Origin: Pseudomonadota bacterium
GTDB lineage: Bacteria; Pseudomonadota; Gammaproteobacteria; Halothiobacillales; Halothiobacillaceae
DNA: 24,000 nt
Reading direction: 5' to 3'
NCBI GenBank assembly: GCA_040751855.1
Contig: JBFMGA010000003.1
Coordinates: 142,026 to 166,025, forward strand
Shown here: one piece after another, positions 8,050 to 15,620 of the stretch
How positions within the stretch are numbered: position 1 is the stretch's first letter
Layout: each line of letters starts with the position of its first letter
The notes under the pieces: generated by a model
What the model was told of the DNA's origin: nothing
Database searches by the model: none
Seen by the model: the letters and a program-made list of their open reading frames with translations, nothing else
Translations under genes and position numbers: made by a program

Positions 8050-8466
8050 TCAAGCCTGATTGGTTTGAATCGCCCTGGTTTGAATCGACTTGGGGCGTGT
8101 CTTGTGAATCCGCGCCCCCGTCTGGAGTGTAGGACATACTGAACCGCCCCGAATTTTCCGGAGACACCGCTCTTTGAGAGGGTGGGGCGATGAAGACGAC
8201 AACGAGGCATCCCCCGTGACTCCGAGACTTCCGGGGCGGTTCACGACTAACCAGACCGCAACCCGCCAAATCGTGCCGAAAGCAGCACGCTGCCCACGGC
8301 GCGCGCGGAGGTGCAGCAGCGCCATGCCCAGCCCAAGCACGCTCAGCGCGGCGGCAGCCCAAGTGCGCACCGAGGTGAAGGCGAGATCGTCCAGTTGGCT
8401 GGCCAGCGCCAGGGCGATCACAAGCAACAGGAGCGGGAGCGCACGCAAGCTCATGTTCATGTTCAT
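8050..8466 (-). CDS. Hypothetical small membrane protein translationally coupled to creD
   Basis: Its ATG (8466-8464) overlaps the creD TGA (8465-8463) in an ATGA junction. The first ~75 codons are GC3-rich and encode three hydrophobic segments (LRALPLLLLVIALALA, WAAAALSVLGLGMALL, IWRVAVWLVV). The 3' third has poorer codon usage, so the true C-terminus is uncertain. Confidence 0.45.
   Translation of the reverse strand: MNMNMSLRALPLLLLVIALALASQLDDLAFTSVRTWAAAALSVLGLGMALLHLRARRGQRAAFGTIWRVAVWLVVNRPGSLGVTGDASLSSSSPHPLKERCLRKIRGGSVCPTLQTGARIHKTRPKSIQTRAIQTNQA
8061..8087. repeat. Two-copy direct repeat tggtttgaatcg with a 15-bp period
   Basis: tggtttgaatcg occurs at 8061-8072 and again at 8076-8087, separated by ccc. 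It lies just upstream (minus-strand sense) of the REPIN and the DsrE-like gene. Confidence 0.5.
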
Positions 8467-9785
8467 GCGGCTTCATCCTCAGCGGCGCGACCGAGACTGC
8501 GCCAGTCCAGCTTGCGGGTCAGCCACATGGTCAGCGCCAACAAACCGAAGATCAGCCAAACGCCCATGAGCAAGGCATAGTCTTCCGAGGCCAGCAGCAT
8601 AAACAGCCCCGCGTAGAGCAGCGCGTAACCGACCCCCAGCACGCCCGCCCCCAACCAATGGCCGAGCAGCGTGCGCCCATAGGCCGTAATCAACAGCACG
8701 CAGGCGCTCGCCGTAACGACATAGGCCAGACTGAAGGCAATGTGCTCGGACAAGGCGAGCAGCAACAGGAAAAACAGCACCACAGCGAAACCGATCAGCA
8801 GATATTGCAACGGATGCACCGACTTGCGCTTAATCATCTCGAACAAAAAGAAACCGCCCAAGGTCAACAGCACGAACAGAAAACCATAGCGCACGGCACG
8901 ATCGGTCTGGGTGTAGGCATCCACCGGATCAAGCAGCGAGACACCGAATGATTCGCTCAGCCAATGTTCCGGTTGCTCGGCATTGCGCGCATAGTTCGTC
9001 AAAACCTGATCGCCGCCAGTGGCGAAATCGCTGACCCGCCAGCGGGCATTGAATCCGTCGTGACCGACCTCGCGTGTTTCAGGCAGATACAGACCGGCGA
9101 AGCTGGGATGCGGCCAGCTCGATTGCAGGCTGAAATCGTTATTGGCCGCGACTGGAACCAAATCCAGACGAGCGCTGCCCGCCACTTCGAGATCAAGCGT
9201 CAGCCTCTGCACTTGATCCAAGTCCGCTGGAGTAAGCGGCACATGGAAGCCAAACTTGCTCGGCCCACCGGAAACGCCTGGCCGGGCGGCTAATTCATCA
9301 CCATCCGCCGTGACGATCCGCACCTGCTTGATGCCGCGCGGATCGGCGACACCGAAAATCAGCTCAGCCGCTTCAATCACCTGGCCGGGCTTGGGGGTAA
9401 AGGCGGGCATGACCGCCTGCAATTGCAGCGCCGCCGTATAAATATGCGCCCTGTAGATGCCTCGATAGCGCTCGGCCACCTCAAGACGGCCTTGGCCGGT
9501 GAGGCTGTCGGGGCGGATGACCTGGGAACAATCGTGACTGACGACCTGACGACGGCTGCCGTTGCTATCGGTCTCAATGAGATTGCTCGGCTCGCTGCAT
9601 TTGATCCAGAGCAGCGGCCCGACCAGCTGTTGCGCATGAGCGTATTGCTCAGCGATGGTTTGCACCACGCTATCGTGCGTGGCGCGACGTTCGTGGACTT
9701 TCCATTCCACTTGGCTGACGGCGAAAATCAGAATCAGCGCCAGCACCGCCAGCGCGAACAGTTTGGTATTGAGCAACTTGCCCAT
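8463..9785 (-). CDS. creD: Inner-membrane protein CreD
   Basis: 440 aa. It carries the conserved CreD blocks SSWPHPSF and HPLQYLLIGFAVVLFFLLLLALSEH (E. coli: SNWPHPSF, HPMQYLLVGLSLVMFYLLLLALSEH). There is an N-terminal TM anchor and a C-terminal multi-TM bundle. GGGAG Shine-Dalgarno upstream. Confidence 0.9.
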   Translation of the reverse strand: MGKLLNTKLFALAVLALILIFAVSQVEWKVHERRATHDSVVQTIAEQYAHAQQLVGPLLWIKCSEPSNLIETDSNGSRRQVVSHDCSQVIRPDSLTGQGRLEVAERYRGIYRAHIYTAALQLQAVMPAFTPKPGQVIEAAELIFGVADPRGIKQVRIVTADGDELAARPGVSGGPSKFGFHVPLTPADLDQVQRLTLDLEVAGSARLDLVPVAANNDFSLQSSWPHPSFAGLYLPETREVGHDGFNARWRVSDFATGGDQVLTNYARNAEQPEHWLSESFGVSLLDPVDAYTQTDRAVRYGFLFVLLTLGGFFLFEMIKRKSVHPLQYLLIGFAVVLFFLLLLALSEHIAFSLAYVVTASACVLLITAYGRTLLGHWLGAGVLGVGYALLYAGLFMLLASEDYALLMGVWLIFGLLALTMWLTRKLDWRSLGRAAEDEAA

Positions 9786-10014
9786 GATGAACTCCCGGTT
9801 GTGAAGACCGGGAAAGCTTGCTCGCTCTGTGTGGGGGCTTTGTGTGCGGGGCGTGTGGATTGGGTGGGGAATGGTGTTTTTGTGGATTTGGTCGGGTGTT
9901 GGTTAAATCCGTAGCGGTTTATTGATTGGTAATGCTGGATAGTGGCTCATCCGACGATGACAATCATCAAGATCGTGATTCATCTGTTATTCCAACGCGT
10001 TTCAAGCACAAAAC

Positions 10015-12456
10015 TTATAACGTTACTCCGCAACACTTCTTGTATTTCTTTCCACTCCCACACGGGCATCGCTCGTTACGACCTACCTTGTGCCGCCCAA
10101 CCGTTGCGAAGTAAGCCTGAAAACGATTGCCCACCAAGCGCTGCGAGTAGTTCCTCAACTCATCGCTATCGACCCTTTCAATGTCTTTGTCGGAGAAGAA
10201 GATAGGCGTAACGATCTGAAGCCTCTTATCCGAGGAATAGTCCAGTTTTAGAGCCAATCGTTCAGATTCGTTTGCGAGCTGAATAGTAGCGAGTGTATGA
10301 ACTTTGACGAGATGATCGTCAGGACGAACCCCGCCCTCAATGGAGCAATAGAACGTTACTGGGACATCGCCTGTGCATGTGGCAGGCTTAGGCCGCCCCA
10401 CTTTCTGCTGCTCTTCCAATACCTGATCGATGAGGGCGCTTGCCTGGTTTCGAAAATCACCGCCCATGTCTAGTATCCAAGCGGCAGCCTTGCAGCGGCC
10501 TGGAAGCTTACTTAAGGCAAGAACATCGATGATTTCCTCCAGACGAGCCGGTATCGACTGACGAGGCAACTCATTAGGTTCTCCACTGATCTTCCCCGAG
10601 AAGAACTTGTCGAGGCTCTCTCTGTAGCCGTGCCAATGGATGGGAGTCTCAAACTGAAAATCTTCCGCGTAAGTTGAATAGTGGTTATGCGAAAGATACA
10701 GAGCGAGATGATCCAACTCGTCGTTGGTCTGAAGTGCCGGAGAGGAAAAAGCCGCTGCACGCTGTTCGAGGAAATGGCAAAAGATAAGGGGGTTATCAAT
10801 TACGTCTGCGAACACGCGAAGATCATCGACAGAAACCGTCCACACAGGACTGCTGCCGACATTTACGCCAAGTTCATGCAGATTTTCTGCCCTGGCGGCG
10901 AACTCAGTAAGTTGATCCAACGTAACGCAGCAGCGGGTAATCGACCGGAAATTTGTGTGCTCTAGCGTTCCAATCGGAAAGTGCCCCGAGTCATAGATCG
11001 TGACTTGCGGTTCGCTGCCAAGATATGCGCAGAATCGATCAGTCTGCTCGGAGGGCTTGCGCAGTAATGCATTGAGAGAGCTTATGTAAGCGGGGAAATC
11101 AGAGCTCGGTGGTGTGTGGGTAAAGGCACCCGCCCTTACCTCAACCACGATTAAATGGTCATCGTAGATCAACAGACCATCTGTCTCGCACCATTGTTTT
11201 GTCCCAGCGGAGCCGGTTGCCCACTGGTAATAAACCGATTGATATACCGTAGCCCCTGGAAGAAGCCGTCCCAAGAGAGAAAGCGGAAGCGCCTCGGAAA
11301 TATCTTTCTGGCGTGAATTCCACGTCTCTTTATAAGACGGATCCAAATTTGTAAGTGTTCGCTGGAATATTCGATATCCGTGGTCTGTGAATGGATAGAT
11401 GCCGAAGGTGTAGTACCTGCCGTCAATTTTTAGGAAAGGACGCTTCCAAATAGGTAATACCCGCAAGGGCCAACCGCTGAATGAGCCGTGTGCCATAAAG
11501 GTAGTGTCTTCGCCAAGTTGCCATGACAGGCAATCCAGCAGTGTTCGCGGCCAGCCCGTAACGGCTTCCATGTCAAACAAACCATAGCCCATCGCATCGC
11601 CATGAACTCTGTCGCGCCACTCCTCCCAACCGTTTGCGTGAATAACCTTGTCCATCAGCTCGGCTGGGCTACCCGTCTCGCCGGTAGTATCAATGGACTG
11701 CTGCAAAGCATCTAGGGTTGCTGTCCGAAAGTCATCCAGTGCCTCAAATGCGTCCCTTGGGCCTCGACTGAATTTGCCGATGATTTGCTCGATGCCGTGA
11801 ATGACTTCATCCGTGGAGACACCGAAGAGGTGTCTAAACTGCACATCATGCGGTGTGAGAAGGTCGCGGAAATGTGGAACATCGTGGCATAAATATCGAT
11901 CTCCTCGCACAGCAAGCCAATGTAATTGAGCCTGCACCGCAAATCGCTCTTGTCGCTCGTCAAAGTTCGGATCATTCCGCTCTGCCCATGCTGTGTGAGT
12001 TATAAGATATTCGGAGGCGATCTTATGTATCAGGCTAGCAATGTCAGTTGTGAGCATTGACCATTCGGTATCAGTCGGCTGCTCACTCTGCTTGGTGTGA
12101 GGCGTAACAGCACAGATCATGCTTTGTAGATATTCGACAATAAAACGCTTTTCGACCCCCTCCTTTCCTTCTTCGACTTCTGACTGAATTCCCATCGCAC
12201 TGAGGAAGTACTCCCAGTAAGCACGATGCAACAGTGGAAGCGGACTGAACCCTGCAACGGCCGTTGCGATACGCCGAACTATTTCATCAATTTCTTCGCA
12301 AACCTCATGATAGCGACCTGCTAGTCGCTCCATGAATTTGGCGTGCTGATCCTCGCTCATCCGATTCTGAAGAACGTTGATCTTCCCAAATCGCATCATC
12401 CTGAGCGGACCAATCTCAAAGCCTTCGTCGGCTGCTATCATTTTCTTCTTTCGCAT
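10015..12456 (-). CDS. Orphan 813-aa protein with a C-terminal SEC-C zinc motif and a tentative PD-(D/E)xK/NERD-like core; lower-GC insertion
   Basis: A single uninterrupted ORF with a purine-rich GGAAAGGA just before the ATG at 12456. The C-terminus is RNERCPCGSGKKYKKCCGVTL, a SEC-C motif. Residues 424-441 read ETDGLLIYDDHLIVVEVR (nt 11134-11187), which has nuclease-like D...ExK spacing but Arg in place of Lys. A/T-ending codons are common, unlike in the flanking genes. Confidence 0.85.
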   Translation of the reverse strand: MRKKKMIAADEGFEIGPLRMMRFGKINVLQNRMSEDQHAKFMERLAGRYHEVCEEIDEIVRRIATAVAGFSPLPLLHRAYWEYFLSAMGIQSEVEEGKEGVEKRFIVEYLQSMICAVTPHTKQSEQPTDTEWSMLTTDIASLIHKIASEYLITHTAWAERNDPNFDERQERFAVQAQLHWLAVRGDRYLCHDVPHFRDLLTPHDVQFRHLFGVSTDEVIHGIEQIIGKFSRGPRDAFEALDDFRTATLDALQQSIDTTGETGSPAELMDKVIHANGWEEWRDRVHGDAMGYGLFDMEAVTGWPRTLLDCLSWQLGEDTTFMAHGSFSGWPLRVLPIWKRPFLKIDGRYYTFGIYPFTDHGYRIFQRTLTNLDPSYKETWNSRQKDISEALPLSLLGRLLPGATVYQSVYYQWATGSAGTKQWCETDGLLIYDDHLIVVEVRAGAFTHTPPSSDFPAYISSLNALLRKPSEQTDRFCAYLGSEPQVTIYDSGHFPIGTLEHTNFRSITRCCVTLDQLTEFAARAENLHELGVNVGSSPVWTVSVDDLRVFADVIDNPLIFCHFLEQRAAAFSSPALQTNDELDHLALYLSHNHYSTYAEDFQFETPIHWHGYRESLDKFFSGKISGEPNELPRQSIPARLEEIIDVLALSKLPGRCKAAAWILDMGGDFRNQASALIDQVLEEQQKVGRPKPATCTGDVPVTFYCSIEGGVRPDDHLVKVHTLATIQLANESERLALKLDYSSDKRLQIVTPIFFSDKDIERVDSDELRNYSQRLVGNRFQAYFATVGRHKVGRNERCPCGSGKKYKKCCGVTL

Positions 12457-12517
12457 TGTCCTTTCCAGTTATGCGCCGATCTTGGTGCCCTATGAAACCG
12501 AGCTTATTGAACTCACT

Positions 12518-13966
12518 TCACAAAAGCGCACCACCCGCACTTTTATCCACAGGCAAGCTCAAACAAGCCTCAGCCCCGCCCTGCGGATGATTGTGCAATG
12601 CAATGTTGCCGCCGTGCAGGCGGGCGACTTCTTGCACCAGGTTGAGGCCAAGGCCGCTGCTGCGTTCGCCACTATCGGGGCGGGGCACGGAATAGAAGCG
12701 CTCGAACAAACGCGACTGGGCGTAGTCGGGAATGCCCGCGCCGTGGTCGCGCAGGCGTAGCCGGACGTGGTCGCCTTCTGTTGCGAGGTGAATTTCAAGC
12801 ACGCCGCCGCTCGGGCTGAAATCGGCGGCATTGTCGAGCAGGTTGGCGACCGCCTGGCGTAGCAGAAAACGGCTACCGGACACTTTGACCGGTGCCAGCA
12901 TGGTCTCCACCTGCAGCGCCTTGTTGGCCAGCCGTGCGGTACGGGTGGCGATCACGTCGCGGATCAGCTCATCCAAGGCGATCTCCTCGCGTTCGTCCAG
13001 CCGCCCGCGATTCTCGGCGCGCGCCAGGTTGAGCACGCCTTCGACGATGCGTTGCAGACGCGCCGTTTCGGCGGCGATATTGCTCTCCAGGCGGGCGCGC
13101 CGTTGCGGGTCATTTTCGTCCGGCAACAGTTCAATTGCGCCGTGGATAGCCGCAATGGGGCTTTTCAGTTCATGCGCCAACAGTTGCGAGACTTTCTCAA
13201 CATGCGCCTTGCCATCCAGTTCGGCGCGCAGATGTTCCAACGCCTGCGCCAGACGGCGCAGTTCGCTGCGGCCTTCAATCGGAATACGGTCGCGCTTGCC
13301 TGCGGCCACTTCGTTGGCGTAATCGACCAGGCGGCGCAGACCGCGCGTCATCCAGTAGGAAAAGCCCAGCGCCAACAGCAAAGCCAGGGCGAACAACCAG
13401 AGCGCCGATTCCCAGGCCTTGGCCTGGGTCAGGTCGATAAAGCTTTGGAAGGAGCTCGCGGGTTTGCCGACCGACAACACGCCGACGATCTGGCCTGCGC
13501 GCAGAATGGGCGCGGCCACGTACATGACGCTGCTGGCGCTGTCCGTGGCGTTTTCCAGCGTGGTGCGCGCGCCGTACTCGCCGCTCAGGGTGAGACGGAC
13601 ATCCCGCCAGCCGGAATAGTCCTTGCCGACATCAAGGCCACGGCTGTCGTAGATCACCCTGCCGTTCCTATCGGTGACGTAGATGCGCAAGTTCGGGTCG
13701 CTTTTGAGCACACCATAAATCCGCGCCTCGAAACGGCGTTTTTCATAGGCGCGGAAGATTTCCTCGATATTGGTCATGCCCTGTCGGCCATGCGGCGCTT
13801 CCCGCGAAGCGATCTCGGCCAGCAGGTTGGCGGTCTGCACCAGGGTTTCCTCGACCGACTGGCGCACCCCCGGCACGAGTTGGTCGGTGAACAGCTTCAT
13901 CGCCAGCAATACGCCCAGCGCGGCCACCAGGACATAGCCGACGAAGAAGCGGATGAAAAAATTCAC
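12518..13966 (-). CDS. creC: Two-component sensor histidine kinase, CreC-like
   Basis: 482 aa. The N-terminus FVGYVLVAALGVLLAMKLFTDQLVPGVRQSVEETLVQTANLLAEIA parallels E. coli CreC (LLGYFLLVAVAAWFVLAIFVKEVKPGVRRATEGTLIDTATLLAELA). It has an H-box HELKSPIAAIHG, an N-box LLDNAADFS, G1 DHGAGIP and G2 GLGLNLV. The GTG start overlaps the creB stop (GTGA). Confidence 0.8.
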   Translation of the reverse strand: MNFFIRFFVGYVLVAALGVLLAMKLFTDQLVPGVRQSVEETLVQTANLLAEIASREAPHGRQGMTNIEEIFRAYEKRRFEARIYGVLKSDPNLRIYVTDRNGRVIYDSRGLDVGKDYSGWRDVRLTLSGEYGARTTLENATDSASSVMYVAAPILRAGQIVGVLSVGKPASSFQSFIDLTQAKAWESALWLFALALLLALGFSYWMTRGLRRLVDYANEVAAGKRDRIPIEGRSELRRLAQALEHLRAELDGKAHVEKVSQLLAHELKSPIAAIHGAIELLPDENDPQRRARLESNIAAETARLQRIVEGVLNLARAENRGRLDEREEIALDELIRDVIATRTARLANKALQVETMLAPVKVSGSRFLLRQAVANLLDNAADFSPSGGVLEIHLATEGDHVRLRLRDHGAGIPDYAQSRLFERFYSVPRPDSGERSSGLGLNLVQEVARLHGGNIALHNHPQGGAEACLSLPVDKSAGGALL

Positions 13967-14809: not shown

Positions 14810-15370
14810 TCAACCCACAATATGGTGCTTGCCTACGAGTTGAACCGAACTGGCCTTCGGGCCTTTCTCACCCTCGACCTCATCGAAACGCACCTCGGCG
14901 CCTTGCGGCAAATCATCAAAGTCCACGTTCAGCAGACTGTTACGGTGAAAGTAAATTTCACGACCATCCGAGGTCAGAATCGTACCGGAGTCCGGGGTGA
15001 CCTCGACCACGCGACCATGCGCCGGCACTTCATGCATCTTCACCTCGCCGCGCATCTTGCCGACATAGGCTTCCAGCTGACGCTGCGCGGCGGCGAATGC
15101 GTCGCGCAAGGTGACGTAAAAATCCTCATGCGCCTGTTGGTCGTGCTTGTCGCGGCTGACCACGATCTCCTGCCCCGGCACGGTGATGTCGATGTTCACA
15201 TCGTAGAGATTGCCCTTCTGGTGGCTCTTGTGCGGGGCGGAGACTGTCACCCGCATGGAGGTGATGCGGTCAAAGTAGCGTTCCAGTTTCATAGCCTTGT
15301 CACGGATCGCCGTTTCAATGGCCTCAGATGGCGGAATGTCCCTGAAGGTAATTTGCAGTGGAACTCTCAT
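14810..15370 (-). CDS. HPF/RaiA-family ribosome-associated domain fused to a C-terminal cold-shock-like domain
   Basis: ATG 15370 is preceded by GAGGAGAAGAAG and gives 186 aa. The N-terminal half (MRVPLQITFRDIPPSEAIETAIRDKAMKLERYF...VNIDITVPGQEIVVS...DFYVTLRDAFAAAQRQLE) follows the YfiA/HPF pattern. The C-terminal 65 aa (GRVVEVTPDSGTILTSDGREIYFHRNSLL..DFDDLPQGAEVRFDEVEGEKGPKASSVQLV) follow the CspA-type CSD pattern. Confidence 0.8.
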   Translation of the reverse strand: MRVPLQITFRDIPPSEAIETAIRDKAMKLERYFDRITSMRVTVSAPHKSHQKGNLYDVNIDITVPGQEIVVSRDKHDQQAHEDFYVTLRDAFAAAQRQLEAYVGKMRGEVKMHEVPAHGRVVEVTPDSGTILTSDGREIYFHRNSLLNVDFDDLPQGAEVRFDEVEGEKGPKASSVQLVGKHHIVG

Positions 15371-15620
15371 CTTCTTCTCCTCGTCATGCCCGAACGCCGG
15401 GCGAAACTTGTGTGAACGCCTTGTGACATTGATAGCACCAGACTCCCTGAAAGCCAAGCGCTCTCGATCTTGCGCTCGCAGGGGCTGGCAAGCCGGATAG
15501 GAAAATGCCTTTCATTCACGCATAATCGGAGAAGCCGCCCATGCCGTGATGGCAAATAACTTGCTTAATCCGGCCGGGAATGCCCACCAATTTTCAAGCT
15601 GAATCTGGAGTGTTTGCCGC

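Follow-up and report, generated by a model that had tools for sequence, protein, structure and literature searches.

Genomic setting and origin of the gene

The stretch of DNA analyzed here (the window, 24,000 nucleotides (nt) of contig JBFMGA010000003.1, assembly GCA_040751855.1, from a gammaproteobacterium of the Halothiobacillaceae) contains, between the envelope-stress genes creC and creD, an open reading frame (ORF) of 2,442 nt that encodes a protein of 813 amino acids (aa) from an ATG start on the minus strand. A first-pass annotation, made from the letters alone, had delimited the same ORF at 10015-12456 and described it as an orphan with a SEC-C tail and a nuclease-like core. We find that the gene was acquired as a single-gene insertion and is one of a large family, mobile by horizontal transfer and as yet uncharacterized, whose members combine a divergent core assigned to the NERD / PD-(D/E)xK superfamily with a C-terminal SEC-C zinc-binding motif. 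The features of the locus on which this account depends are as follows (L numbers denote homologous stretches from other genomes).

10015-12456, minus strand: protein with NERD core and SEC-C tail, of an uncharacterized family of ~815 aa; from the ORF call, homologs, and a ratio of nonsynonymous to synonymous substitution rates (dN/dS) of 0.20 against the L085 ortholog
9881-12540, ends uncertain by about 15 nt either way, no strand: inserted foreign segment of ~2.66 kilobases (kb); from alignment with four empty sites
12518-13966, minus strand: creC-like sensor kinase, the upstream flank; HAMP, HisKA, and HATPase domain matches
8463-9785, minus strand: creD, the downstream flank; PF06123, E = 1.6e-123
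9786-9880, minus strand: native creC-creD spacer, kept upstream of creD; direct repeat CCACAC-N5-(C/G)CACAC, a putative CreB box
10162-10836, minus strand: apparent recombination tract, codons 541-765; nearly identical to L085:1941-2615, dS 0.03

The base composition of the gene sets it apart from its surroundings. Its G+C content is 0.507 and its G+C content at third codon positions (GC3) is 0.533, compared with 0.57-0.64 and 0.64-0.80, respectively, in the 14 other window ORFs that were measured, and with a GC3 of 0.72-0.76 in creD and creC. In a 500-nt profile, G+C falls from ~0.60-0.63 to 0.48-0.54, and the drop coincides exactly with the gene. The hand counts of G+C per 60-nt line in the first-pass annotation (28, 32, and 24 inside the gene, 37 in creD, and 39 in creC) proved exact, and its remark that codons ending in A or T distinguish the gene from the rest of the window agrees with the GC3 values. 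The good ribosome-binding context that it had also claimed holds in part: a purine-rich GGAAAGGA lies 2-10 nt 5' of the ATG and is a plausible ribosome-binding site, but its spacing is suboptimal.

Comparison of the creC-creD junction in relatives, which had been suggested as a check on the origin of the gene, revealed a presence/absence polymorphism. In four independent relatives (L090/L091, L174, L175, and L176), whose CreD proteins are 75-76% identical to that of the window, creB, creC, and creD are contiguous and the gap between creC and creD is only 72-73 nt. A closer relative (L085-L087), with a CreD identity of 93%, has the 813-aa gene at the same creC-creD site; by its CreD homologs, the source organism falls near Parasulfuritortus, Thiobacillus, and the Hydrogenophilales. 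The empty junction in the four relatives identifies the gene as a derived insertion of ~2.66 kb and, together with the difference in GC3, rules out that it is a native member of the cre operon. Elsewhere, an 85%-identical copy lies between a HigA-like gene and an amidase gene, and cre genes stand beside the family gene in none of 80 other genomes. Given the empty sites, the other positions occupied elsewhere, and the foreign composition, the horizontal insertion proposed from the sequence can be regarded as close to certain.

By alignment with the empty sites, the inserted DNA comprises the last ~8 codons of creC with their stop codon, a 61-nt leader, the gene, and a 3' tail of ~130 nt; its noncoding parts have a G+C content of 0.48-0.49. 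The end of creC that derives from the insert (12518-12545, minus strand) reads ...VDKSAGGALL-stop in place of an ancestral ...ALKNT-stop or similar. The edges of the insert are short runs of four to five A residues, too short for target duplications, and no flanking direct or inverted repeats were found beyond them. As the first-pass annotation had stated, no integrase or transposase gene occurs in the 24 kb of the window; no partner gene was found there either, and no transfer RNA gene was found near the gene. The spacers contain no convincing terminator or promoter. Transcription of the gene by read-through from creBC is therefore probable in this genome, since the gene is co-oriented with creC, begins 61 nt behind it, and has a leader without a promoter-like site.

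The native spacer upstream of creD contains a conserved direct repeat (9830-9900, minus strand; L090:6929-7000) with an 11-nt periodicity, which resembles a site for an OmpR-family regulator such as CreB, and the CCACAC repeat is a putative regulatory element. An imperfect 16-nt copy of a repeat (9881-9896 versus 9854-9869) lies directly at the edge of the insert.

Since its insertion, the gene has been inherited together with its flanks: synonymous divergence (dS) from L085 is 0.30 in codons 1-540 and 0.27 in creD. The dN/dS of 0.20 against this 91%-identical ortholog shows that the gene is under purifying selection and, with hundreds of full-length homologs, that it is a real gene and not a chance ORF. 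The tract at 10162-10836 departs from this pattern, with only 4 differences from the L085 allele over ~680 nt, while the rest of the gene and creD are ~9% divergent, a distribution that points to recent recombination or gene conversion over the C-terminal half. A third allele at the same creC-creD site (L087:229-2607) has a 6-nt deletion that removes V438-E439, and with it the predicted catalytic Glu, and a frameshift near codon 770 through which the SEC-C tail is lost. It comes from a metagenome contig with a coverage of ~4x, so that decay of the allele and a fault of the assembly are both plausible.

A divergent NERD-like core and a SEC-C tail

From the family alignment and a structure model, the protein can be divided into the following regions, all on the minus strand.

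12355-12456, residues 1-34: basic N-terminus and a beta meander of three strands (11-15, 18-23, and 26-31); R22 and G24 nearly invariant
11527-12354, residues 35-310: all-helical N-domain in the model; conservation 0.37; candidate regulatory or sensor domain
11341-11526, residues 311-372: conserved module GWPLR..P..KRPF...D..YR; G328, P330, P335, P340, D358, Y361
10912-11340, residues 373-515: divergent NERD / PD-(D/E)xK core, from NERD matches, conservation, model, and fold searches
11134-11187, residues 424-441: predicted catalytic hairpin ETDGLLIYDDHLIVVEVR, with D426 ... D433 ... E439-x-R441
10621-10911, residues 516-612: conserved helical region that follows the core; S542, D545, F559, H561, R566, D579-E580-L-D582-H583, Y593, G610
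10087-10461, residues 666-790: alpha/beta C-domain, the least conserved; candidate sensor
10027-10080, residues 793-810: SEC-C zinc-binding motif; C797, C799, C808, C809

The only part of the window protein that is recognized on its own is the C-terminal tail, CPCGSGKKYKKCC. It matches the Pfam SEC-C family (PF02810) over residues 793-810 with 34.4 bits against a cutoff of 20.4, which bears out the SEC-C motif reported earlier, and it also matches the solved tails of SecA and YchJ; searches of Pfam, NCBIfam, PADLOC, and PDB sequences with the window protein returned the tail and nothing else. SEC-C was found in 277 of 300 long family members, and C797, C799, and C808 are invariant in the family alignment. 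Similarity to YecA and YchJ is confined to the last ~25-45 residues, and membership in these families (UPF0149 and UPF0225) was rejected, the NCBIfam models scoring 30-42 bits, over the tail only, against cutoffs of 140-158. The UniRef label "YecA family protein" is thus an artifact of a tail-only match. Residues 780-811 also matched, among PADLOC models, the C-terminal ends of PDC-S12 and of several CBASS E2 and E1-E2 models; SEC-C-type tails therefore recur on defense-associated proteins.

The core becomes recognizable when the family is considered as a whole. Among 61 diverse representatives, which are 28-42% identical to the window protein, all 61 have SEC-C and 33 match Pfam NERD at E <= 1 (the strongest at 1.3e-4), and every further family was limited to a single representative at most. 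A Lactococcus homolog matches NERD (PF08378) with 24.1 bits against a threshold of 22.1, at the position equivalent to residues ~380-470, and a Photobacterium homolog scores 15.5 bits, below the cutoff. At the level of the family, the protein very probably belongs to the NERD / PD-(D/E)xK superfamily, and this particular copy falls below the single-sequence Pfam threshold. The family core shares with NERD proteins the E...D...ExK signature on an alpha-beta-beta-beta-alpha fold. It differs from them in being embedded in an 813-aa layout that matches no Pfam, NCBIfam, or PADLOC model and in the replacement of the catalytic Lys by Arg in 21% of the family.

Conservation is centered on the same region. 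Residues 311-612 contain 37 columns with a conservation of at least 90%, and the SEC-C tail is strongly conserved as well; variation is found in the helical N-domain (35-310) and is greatest in the C-domain (666-790). P340, E388, D426, E439, Q471, F559, R566, E580, L662, N794, and three of the SEC-C cysteines are invariant across the 61 representatives, and K441 is conserved in at least 90% of them. The alignment shows the acidic constellation of the predicted active site to be intact in the window protein.

The window protein has Arg in place of the canonical Lys at position 441, as had been noticed from the sequence, and this turns out to be a common polymorphism of the family: the 268 members scored comprise 211 with ExK (~79%) and 56 with ExR (~21%), and the 91%-identical ortholog has Lys. 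This substitution for the general-base Lys, taken with the failure of the window protein alone to match NERD, could mean that catalysis has been lost, in this copy or in all ExR members, and that the protein instead binds nucleic acid or acts as a scaffold. We consider this quite improbable: the acidic ligands E388, D426, D433, and E439 and also Q471 are all intact, ExR occurs in a fifth of members that are full-length and otherwise conserved, and ExR and ExK alternate between orthologs that are 91% identical. Moreover, a DxR motif in the N-terminal domain of the defense protein Upx is reported to be catalytically required (PMC13099982).

Predicted structure and relationship to known nucleases

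An AlphaFold2 model of the window protein has high overall scores (predicted local distance difference test (pLDDT) of 88.9, predicted template modeling score of 0.86). In the core, where pLDDT is ~90, a helix at 373-398 (carrying E388) is followed by strands at 403-413, 420-431 (E424 and D426), and 434-441 (E439 and R441), a helix at 454-479 (Q471), and strands at 485-488 and 505-512. This alpha-beta-beta-beta-alpha order is that of canonical PD-(D/E)xK enzymes, with D426 on strand 2 and E439-x-R441 on strand 3. The PD-(D/E)xK or NERD-like core that had been suspected around residues 424-441 thus finds support in the NERD matches of the representatives, the invariant E388, D426, E439, and Q471, the topology of the model, and the fold searches. 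On the strength of the model and these matches, the protein is very probably a nuclease of the NERD fold.

A Foldseek search of the PDB with the full model gave one significant match, the cryo-electron microscopy structure of Upx (9wuf), with E = 3e-4, a probability of 1.0, and 593 aligned columns, at low template modeling (TM) scores of 0.22 and 0.17. Weaker PDB matches were to VC1899, Cdn1, SduA, Can2/Card1-like proteins, R.BspD6I, McrC, AF1548, Cas4, and lambda exonuclease. When the search was made with a model of residues 1-520, Upx was lost and weak matches to McrC (probability 0.90), AF1548, SduA, Cas4, Hjc, RecU, and MGME1 were obtained. The resemblance to Upx therefore needs the C-terminal ~290 residues, as it vanishes once residues 521-813 are removed. 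Searches of BFVD yielded weak nuclease-type matches only, including a NERD protein, exonucleases, and resolvases, and no full-length viral analog. Residues 35-310 gave no credible fold match. When the PDB was searched with profiles, one built on the full family and one on residues 370-788 so as to exclude the tail, neither Upx nor any other nuclease came up; the only additional match, to volvatoxin (E = 0.26), was treated as chance.

Upx is a monomeric defense protein of 1,272 aa, in which the N-terminal part senses a phage protein and has an atypical DxR site, and a C-terminal PD-(D/E)xK site (D1161, E1176, and K1178) is required for defense (PMC13099982). Sensing of the large terminase by Upx is also reported (PMC13601566). 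Like Upx, the family studied here is encoded by a single gene, has the size of a monomer, combines a nuclease with large noncatalytic domains, and has a wide but patchy distribution. If the protein were a genuine but far-diverged Upx that senses phage large terminase, this would account for 9wuf being the only significant PDB match, and for the common plan of a single-protein defense-type nuclease with large noncatalytic parts (PMC13601566). This is very unlikely, however. The two proteins differ in length (813 versus 1272 aa) and in domain order, the nuclease being central and followed by a SEC-C tail here, and at the extreme C-terminus, without SEC-C, in Upx (PMC13099982). No PADLOC Upx model matched any of 37 family members, and the family profiles gave no HMMER match to the 9wuf sequence, both at E <= 10. 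The TM-scores are low, and the loss of the match without residues 521-813 indicates that it is not based on the arrangement of N-domain plus nuclease that the C-terminal domain of Upx would predict. Membership in the Upx family was rejected on sequence models, length, and domain order.

Other single-protein systems offer partial parallels. ZwsA (Zowangsin) is a stand-alone NERD RNA endonuclease that cleaves the genomes of RNA phages and defends Pseudomonas aeruginosa, for which it needs E535, D567, E580, and K582 (bioRxiv 10.64898/2026.04.06.716636). Like the window protein it is a single multidomain protein, and its D-to-ExK spacing of 13 residues is the same as that from D426 to E439. Compared by description only, ZwsA has a mass of ~82 kDa and contains VHS, DUF647, and S4 domains, with NERD located toward the C-terminus; neither the window protein nor the 61 representatives showed any of these three accessory domains. 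Mokosh type I and Nhi-like systems, too, contain NERD domains (PMC10952713). Rugutis, from a lactococcal plasmid, is a validated single-protein anti-phage system with a SEC-C motif, but this protein of 359 aa carries the motif at its N-terminus and has no reported NERD domain (PMC11381338), and we claim a likeness for the motif alone. Literature searches retrieved no paper describing a NERD-plus-SEC-C protein of this size. As far as can be judged from sequence, the window protein represents a new architecture among single-protein defense-type nucleases of the PD-(D/E)xK/NERD kind, and it stands for a large unannotated family.

Distribution and genomic neighborhoods of the family

The description of the gene as an orphan is accurate for its annotation but not for its distribution. 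At least 116 close relatives share words with the protein, and an exhaustive phmmer scan, counted in clusters of 50% identity, gave at least 512 with E <= 1e-30 and 1,236 with E <= 1e-10; with few exceptions the lengths are 800-830 aa. When a single genome for each species was scanned with a pattern, a relative was found encoded in at least 235 of ~185,000 species genomes, in a patchy distribution over more than ten phyla. The locus-level analyses use the best 80 of these 235 genome stretches, which come from Pseudomonadota, Nitrospirota, Bacillota, Bacteroidota, Planctomycetota, Acidobacteriota, Verrucomicrobiota, Chloroflexota, Thermodesulfobacteriota, Spirochaetota, and others.

Several copies are on mobile elements. 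A P2-like prophage of Duganella phyllosphaerae T54 (L095, the same as L065; 7071-10439) carries, as cargo between ogr/delta and the tail gene D (gpD), a small helix-turn-helix gene and a family member. In IMG/VR, 3 of the 80 matches listed are full-length, one of them on this prophage, and the others are to SEC-C only. Seven plasmids encode the family, and the plasmid copies adjoin insertion sequence (IS) elements, Hok/Gef, and AbiE. On the Lactococcus plasmid pUCCL637D (L092, 5358-8718), a ~30%-identical copy, the homolog that passes the Pfam NERD threshold, is split by an IS30 transposase into two pieces, one of 640 aa that is annotated as "NERD domain-containing protein" and one of 146 aa that is annotated as "SEC-C metal-binding domain-containing protein"; genes for an AbiEii toxin, RecA, and a Y-family polymerase lie near it.

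All-against-all clustering of ~1,000 neighbor ORFs from the 80 loci revealed no conserved neighbor common to more than 6 loci, in line with the earlier claim that the gene has no partner. The immediate neighbors are heterogeneous and include IS21, IS3, and IS30 transposases, integrases, helix-turn-helix proteins, NERD proteins, and a Schlafen-like helicase, and, among genes of defense type, type I and type IIG restriction-modification and Shedu SduA. Gabija GajA, Shango SngC, Mokosh MkoB, BrxH, PD-T4-6, MADS, and PARIS AriA occur within two genes on either side at some loci. Defense and mobilome neighbors were seen at a minority of loci, which does not amount to a measured enrichment. A sister family of ~709 aa (L080:10421-12553 and L045:4490-6622, both minus strand) has the same post-core region (recognizable over residues 516-612), C-terminal region, and SEC-C tail, with a weak NERD match and QxK instead of ExK. 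In a Colwellia genome its gene and the 815-aa gene are immediate neighbors that converge on each other, and in a Sphingobium genome the two are two genes apart; they may form a pair or merely share one island.

Single-gene insertions without a recombinase would be explained if the protein were a selfish or addictive nuclease, toxin-like or of the homing type, that helps the 2.7-kb cassette to persist or spread by cutting empty sites or by post-segregational killing. Several observations fit such a role: the solitary insertion with no mobility gene and with only short A-runs at its edges, genomic positions that differ even among 85%-identical copies, the Hok/Gef genes beside plasmid copies, the recombination tract inside the gene, and the decayed or IS-split alleles. 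Yet there is no conserved antitoxin-like partner and no recognizable target common to the insertion sites, the length of 815 aa and the variable flanking domains set the protein apart from known homing endonucleases, and the equal dS of the gene and creD in the window lineage speaks for stable vertical inheritance. We regard a selfish function as unlikely.

A housekeeping-type nuclease that acts in DNA repair, in recombination, or under stress, and that this genome has drawn into the CreBC regulon, has to be considered as well; its SEC-C tail would couple the enzyme to the ribosome, SecB, or the membrane under stress. Such a function would be consistent with the co-oriented order creB-creC-gene-creD, the 61-nt distance to creC and the lack of a promoter-like match in the leader, with purifying selection, with the Y-family polymerase and recA genes beside the Lactococcus plasmid copy, and with ordinary metabolic neighbors at many loci. 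A patchy occurrence over many phyla, a creC-creD site that is empty in close relatives, foreign composition, and a position that is not conserved are, in contrast, not the marks of a housekeeping function, and we give this explanation little credence.

In the window itself, the genes for the CreB-like response regulator, the CreC-like kinase, and CreD are all on the minus strand. The remaining genes are housekeeping genes: a GGDEF response regulator, a hydrolase, aminopeptidase N, RdgC, DsrE, an HPF-like ORF, pyruvate dehydrogenase E1, E2, and E3, TauE, and shikimate kinase. A 215-aa ORF at 14810-15457 (minus strand) joins a Ribosomal_S30AE domain (residues 34-136), that of ribosome hibernation factors, to a cold-shock domain (158-207), an unusual fusion if the ORF is real.

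A candidate single-protein immune nuclease

We infer that the likeliest function of the family is that of a stand-alone sensor-nuclease for defense. The fold similarity to Upx, carriage by a prophage and by plasmids, and the defense genes beside some copies strengthen this reading, and the inactivated alleles (the IS30-split Lactococcus copy and the L087 copy) were counted as part of the same defense and mobility flavor.

In the mechanism that we propose, a single-chain NERD / PD-(D/E)xK nuclease would act alone as a sensor-effector immune enzyme. In the resting state, the variable flanking domains would keep the metal-dependent site (E388, D426, D433, E439, and K/R441) closed. A cue from the phage, whether protein or nucleic-acid structure, would be bound by a variable domain and would open the site, and the opened enzyme would cut nucleic acid, so that phage replication is blocked and the cell may die. 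Upx and most PD-(D/E)xK enzymes offer an analogy that would make DNA the substrate; the analogy with ZwsA would make it RNA. Tails of the SecA type bind SecB, the ribosome, and acidic membranes, as well as metal. The SEC-C tail would most likely tether or regulate the enzyme through one of these partners of the SecA tail or through metal occupancy.

A number of observations weigh against a defense nuclease. The family is known from sequences and predicted structures, and the role given to the SEC-C tail and the sensing step are pure conjecture. The window protein has no NERD match at E <= 0.1 and carries Arg441 in place of the canonical Lys, and its nuclease fold matches other than that to Upx are individually nonsignificant (E 0.06-2). 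No defense model of PADLOC-DB v2 matches the body of the protein: for 37 members, the check with PADLOC that had been proposed recognized the SEC-C tail only, and Upx models gave no match. GenBank phage genomes contain no family match. Across loci, the neighbors are mostly heterogeneous housekeeping genes. As to the suggested check for defense islands, some copies have defense genes nearby, but the window copy sits among housekeeping genes, outside any defense island. Weighing these points against the evidence above, we put a stand-alone anti-phage function at about an even chance.

A bolder version of the defense reading is that the family constitutes an unrecognized, widespread class of single-protein immune nucleases that is perhaps the evolutionary missing link to Upx. 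The NERD core and C-terminal half would then correspond to the N-terminal "sensor / mini-nuclease" part of Upx, which would have degenerated to DxR there, while a complete E-D-ExK/R site is present here. A new layer would be added by the SEC-C tail, through which an immune nuclease would be linked to the translation and secretion machinery (ribosome, SecB, and membrane) or to metal status. We offer this as a speculation that is probably wrong.

If the family does serve in defense, at least 500 sequence clusters in more than 10 bacterial phyla, which databases label only as "SEC-C metal-binding domain-containing protein" or "YecA family", would make up an unlisted one-gene immune system and a NERD-based counterpart to Upx and ZwsA. 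Its natural K/R polymorphism at the catalytic position would be open to study, and the question would arise of what a zinc tail of the SecA type does on a nuclease. Should the defense reading be wrong, the family would remain well defined, with an active site that can be put to the test. The creC-creD site provides a clean natural experiment, with occupied and empty sites, and recombinant and decayed alleles, in close relatives.

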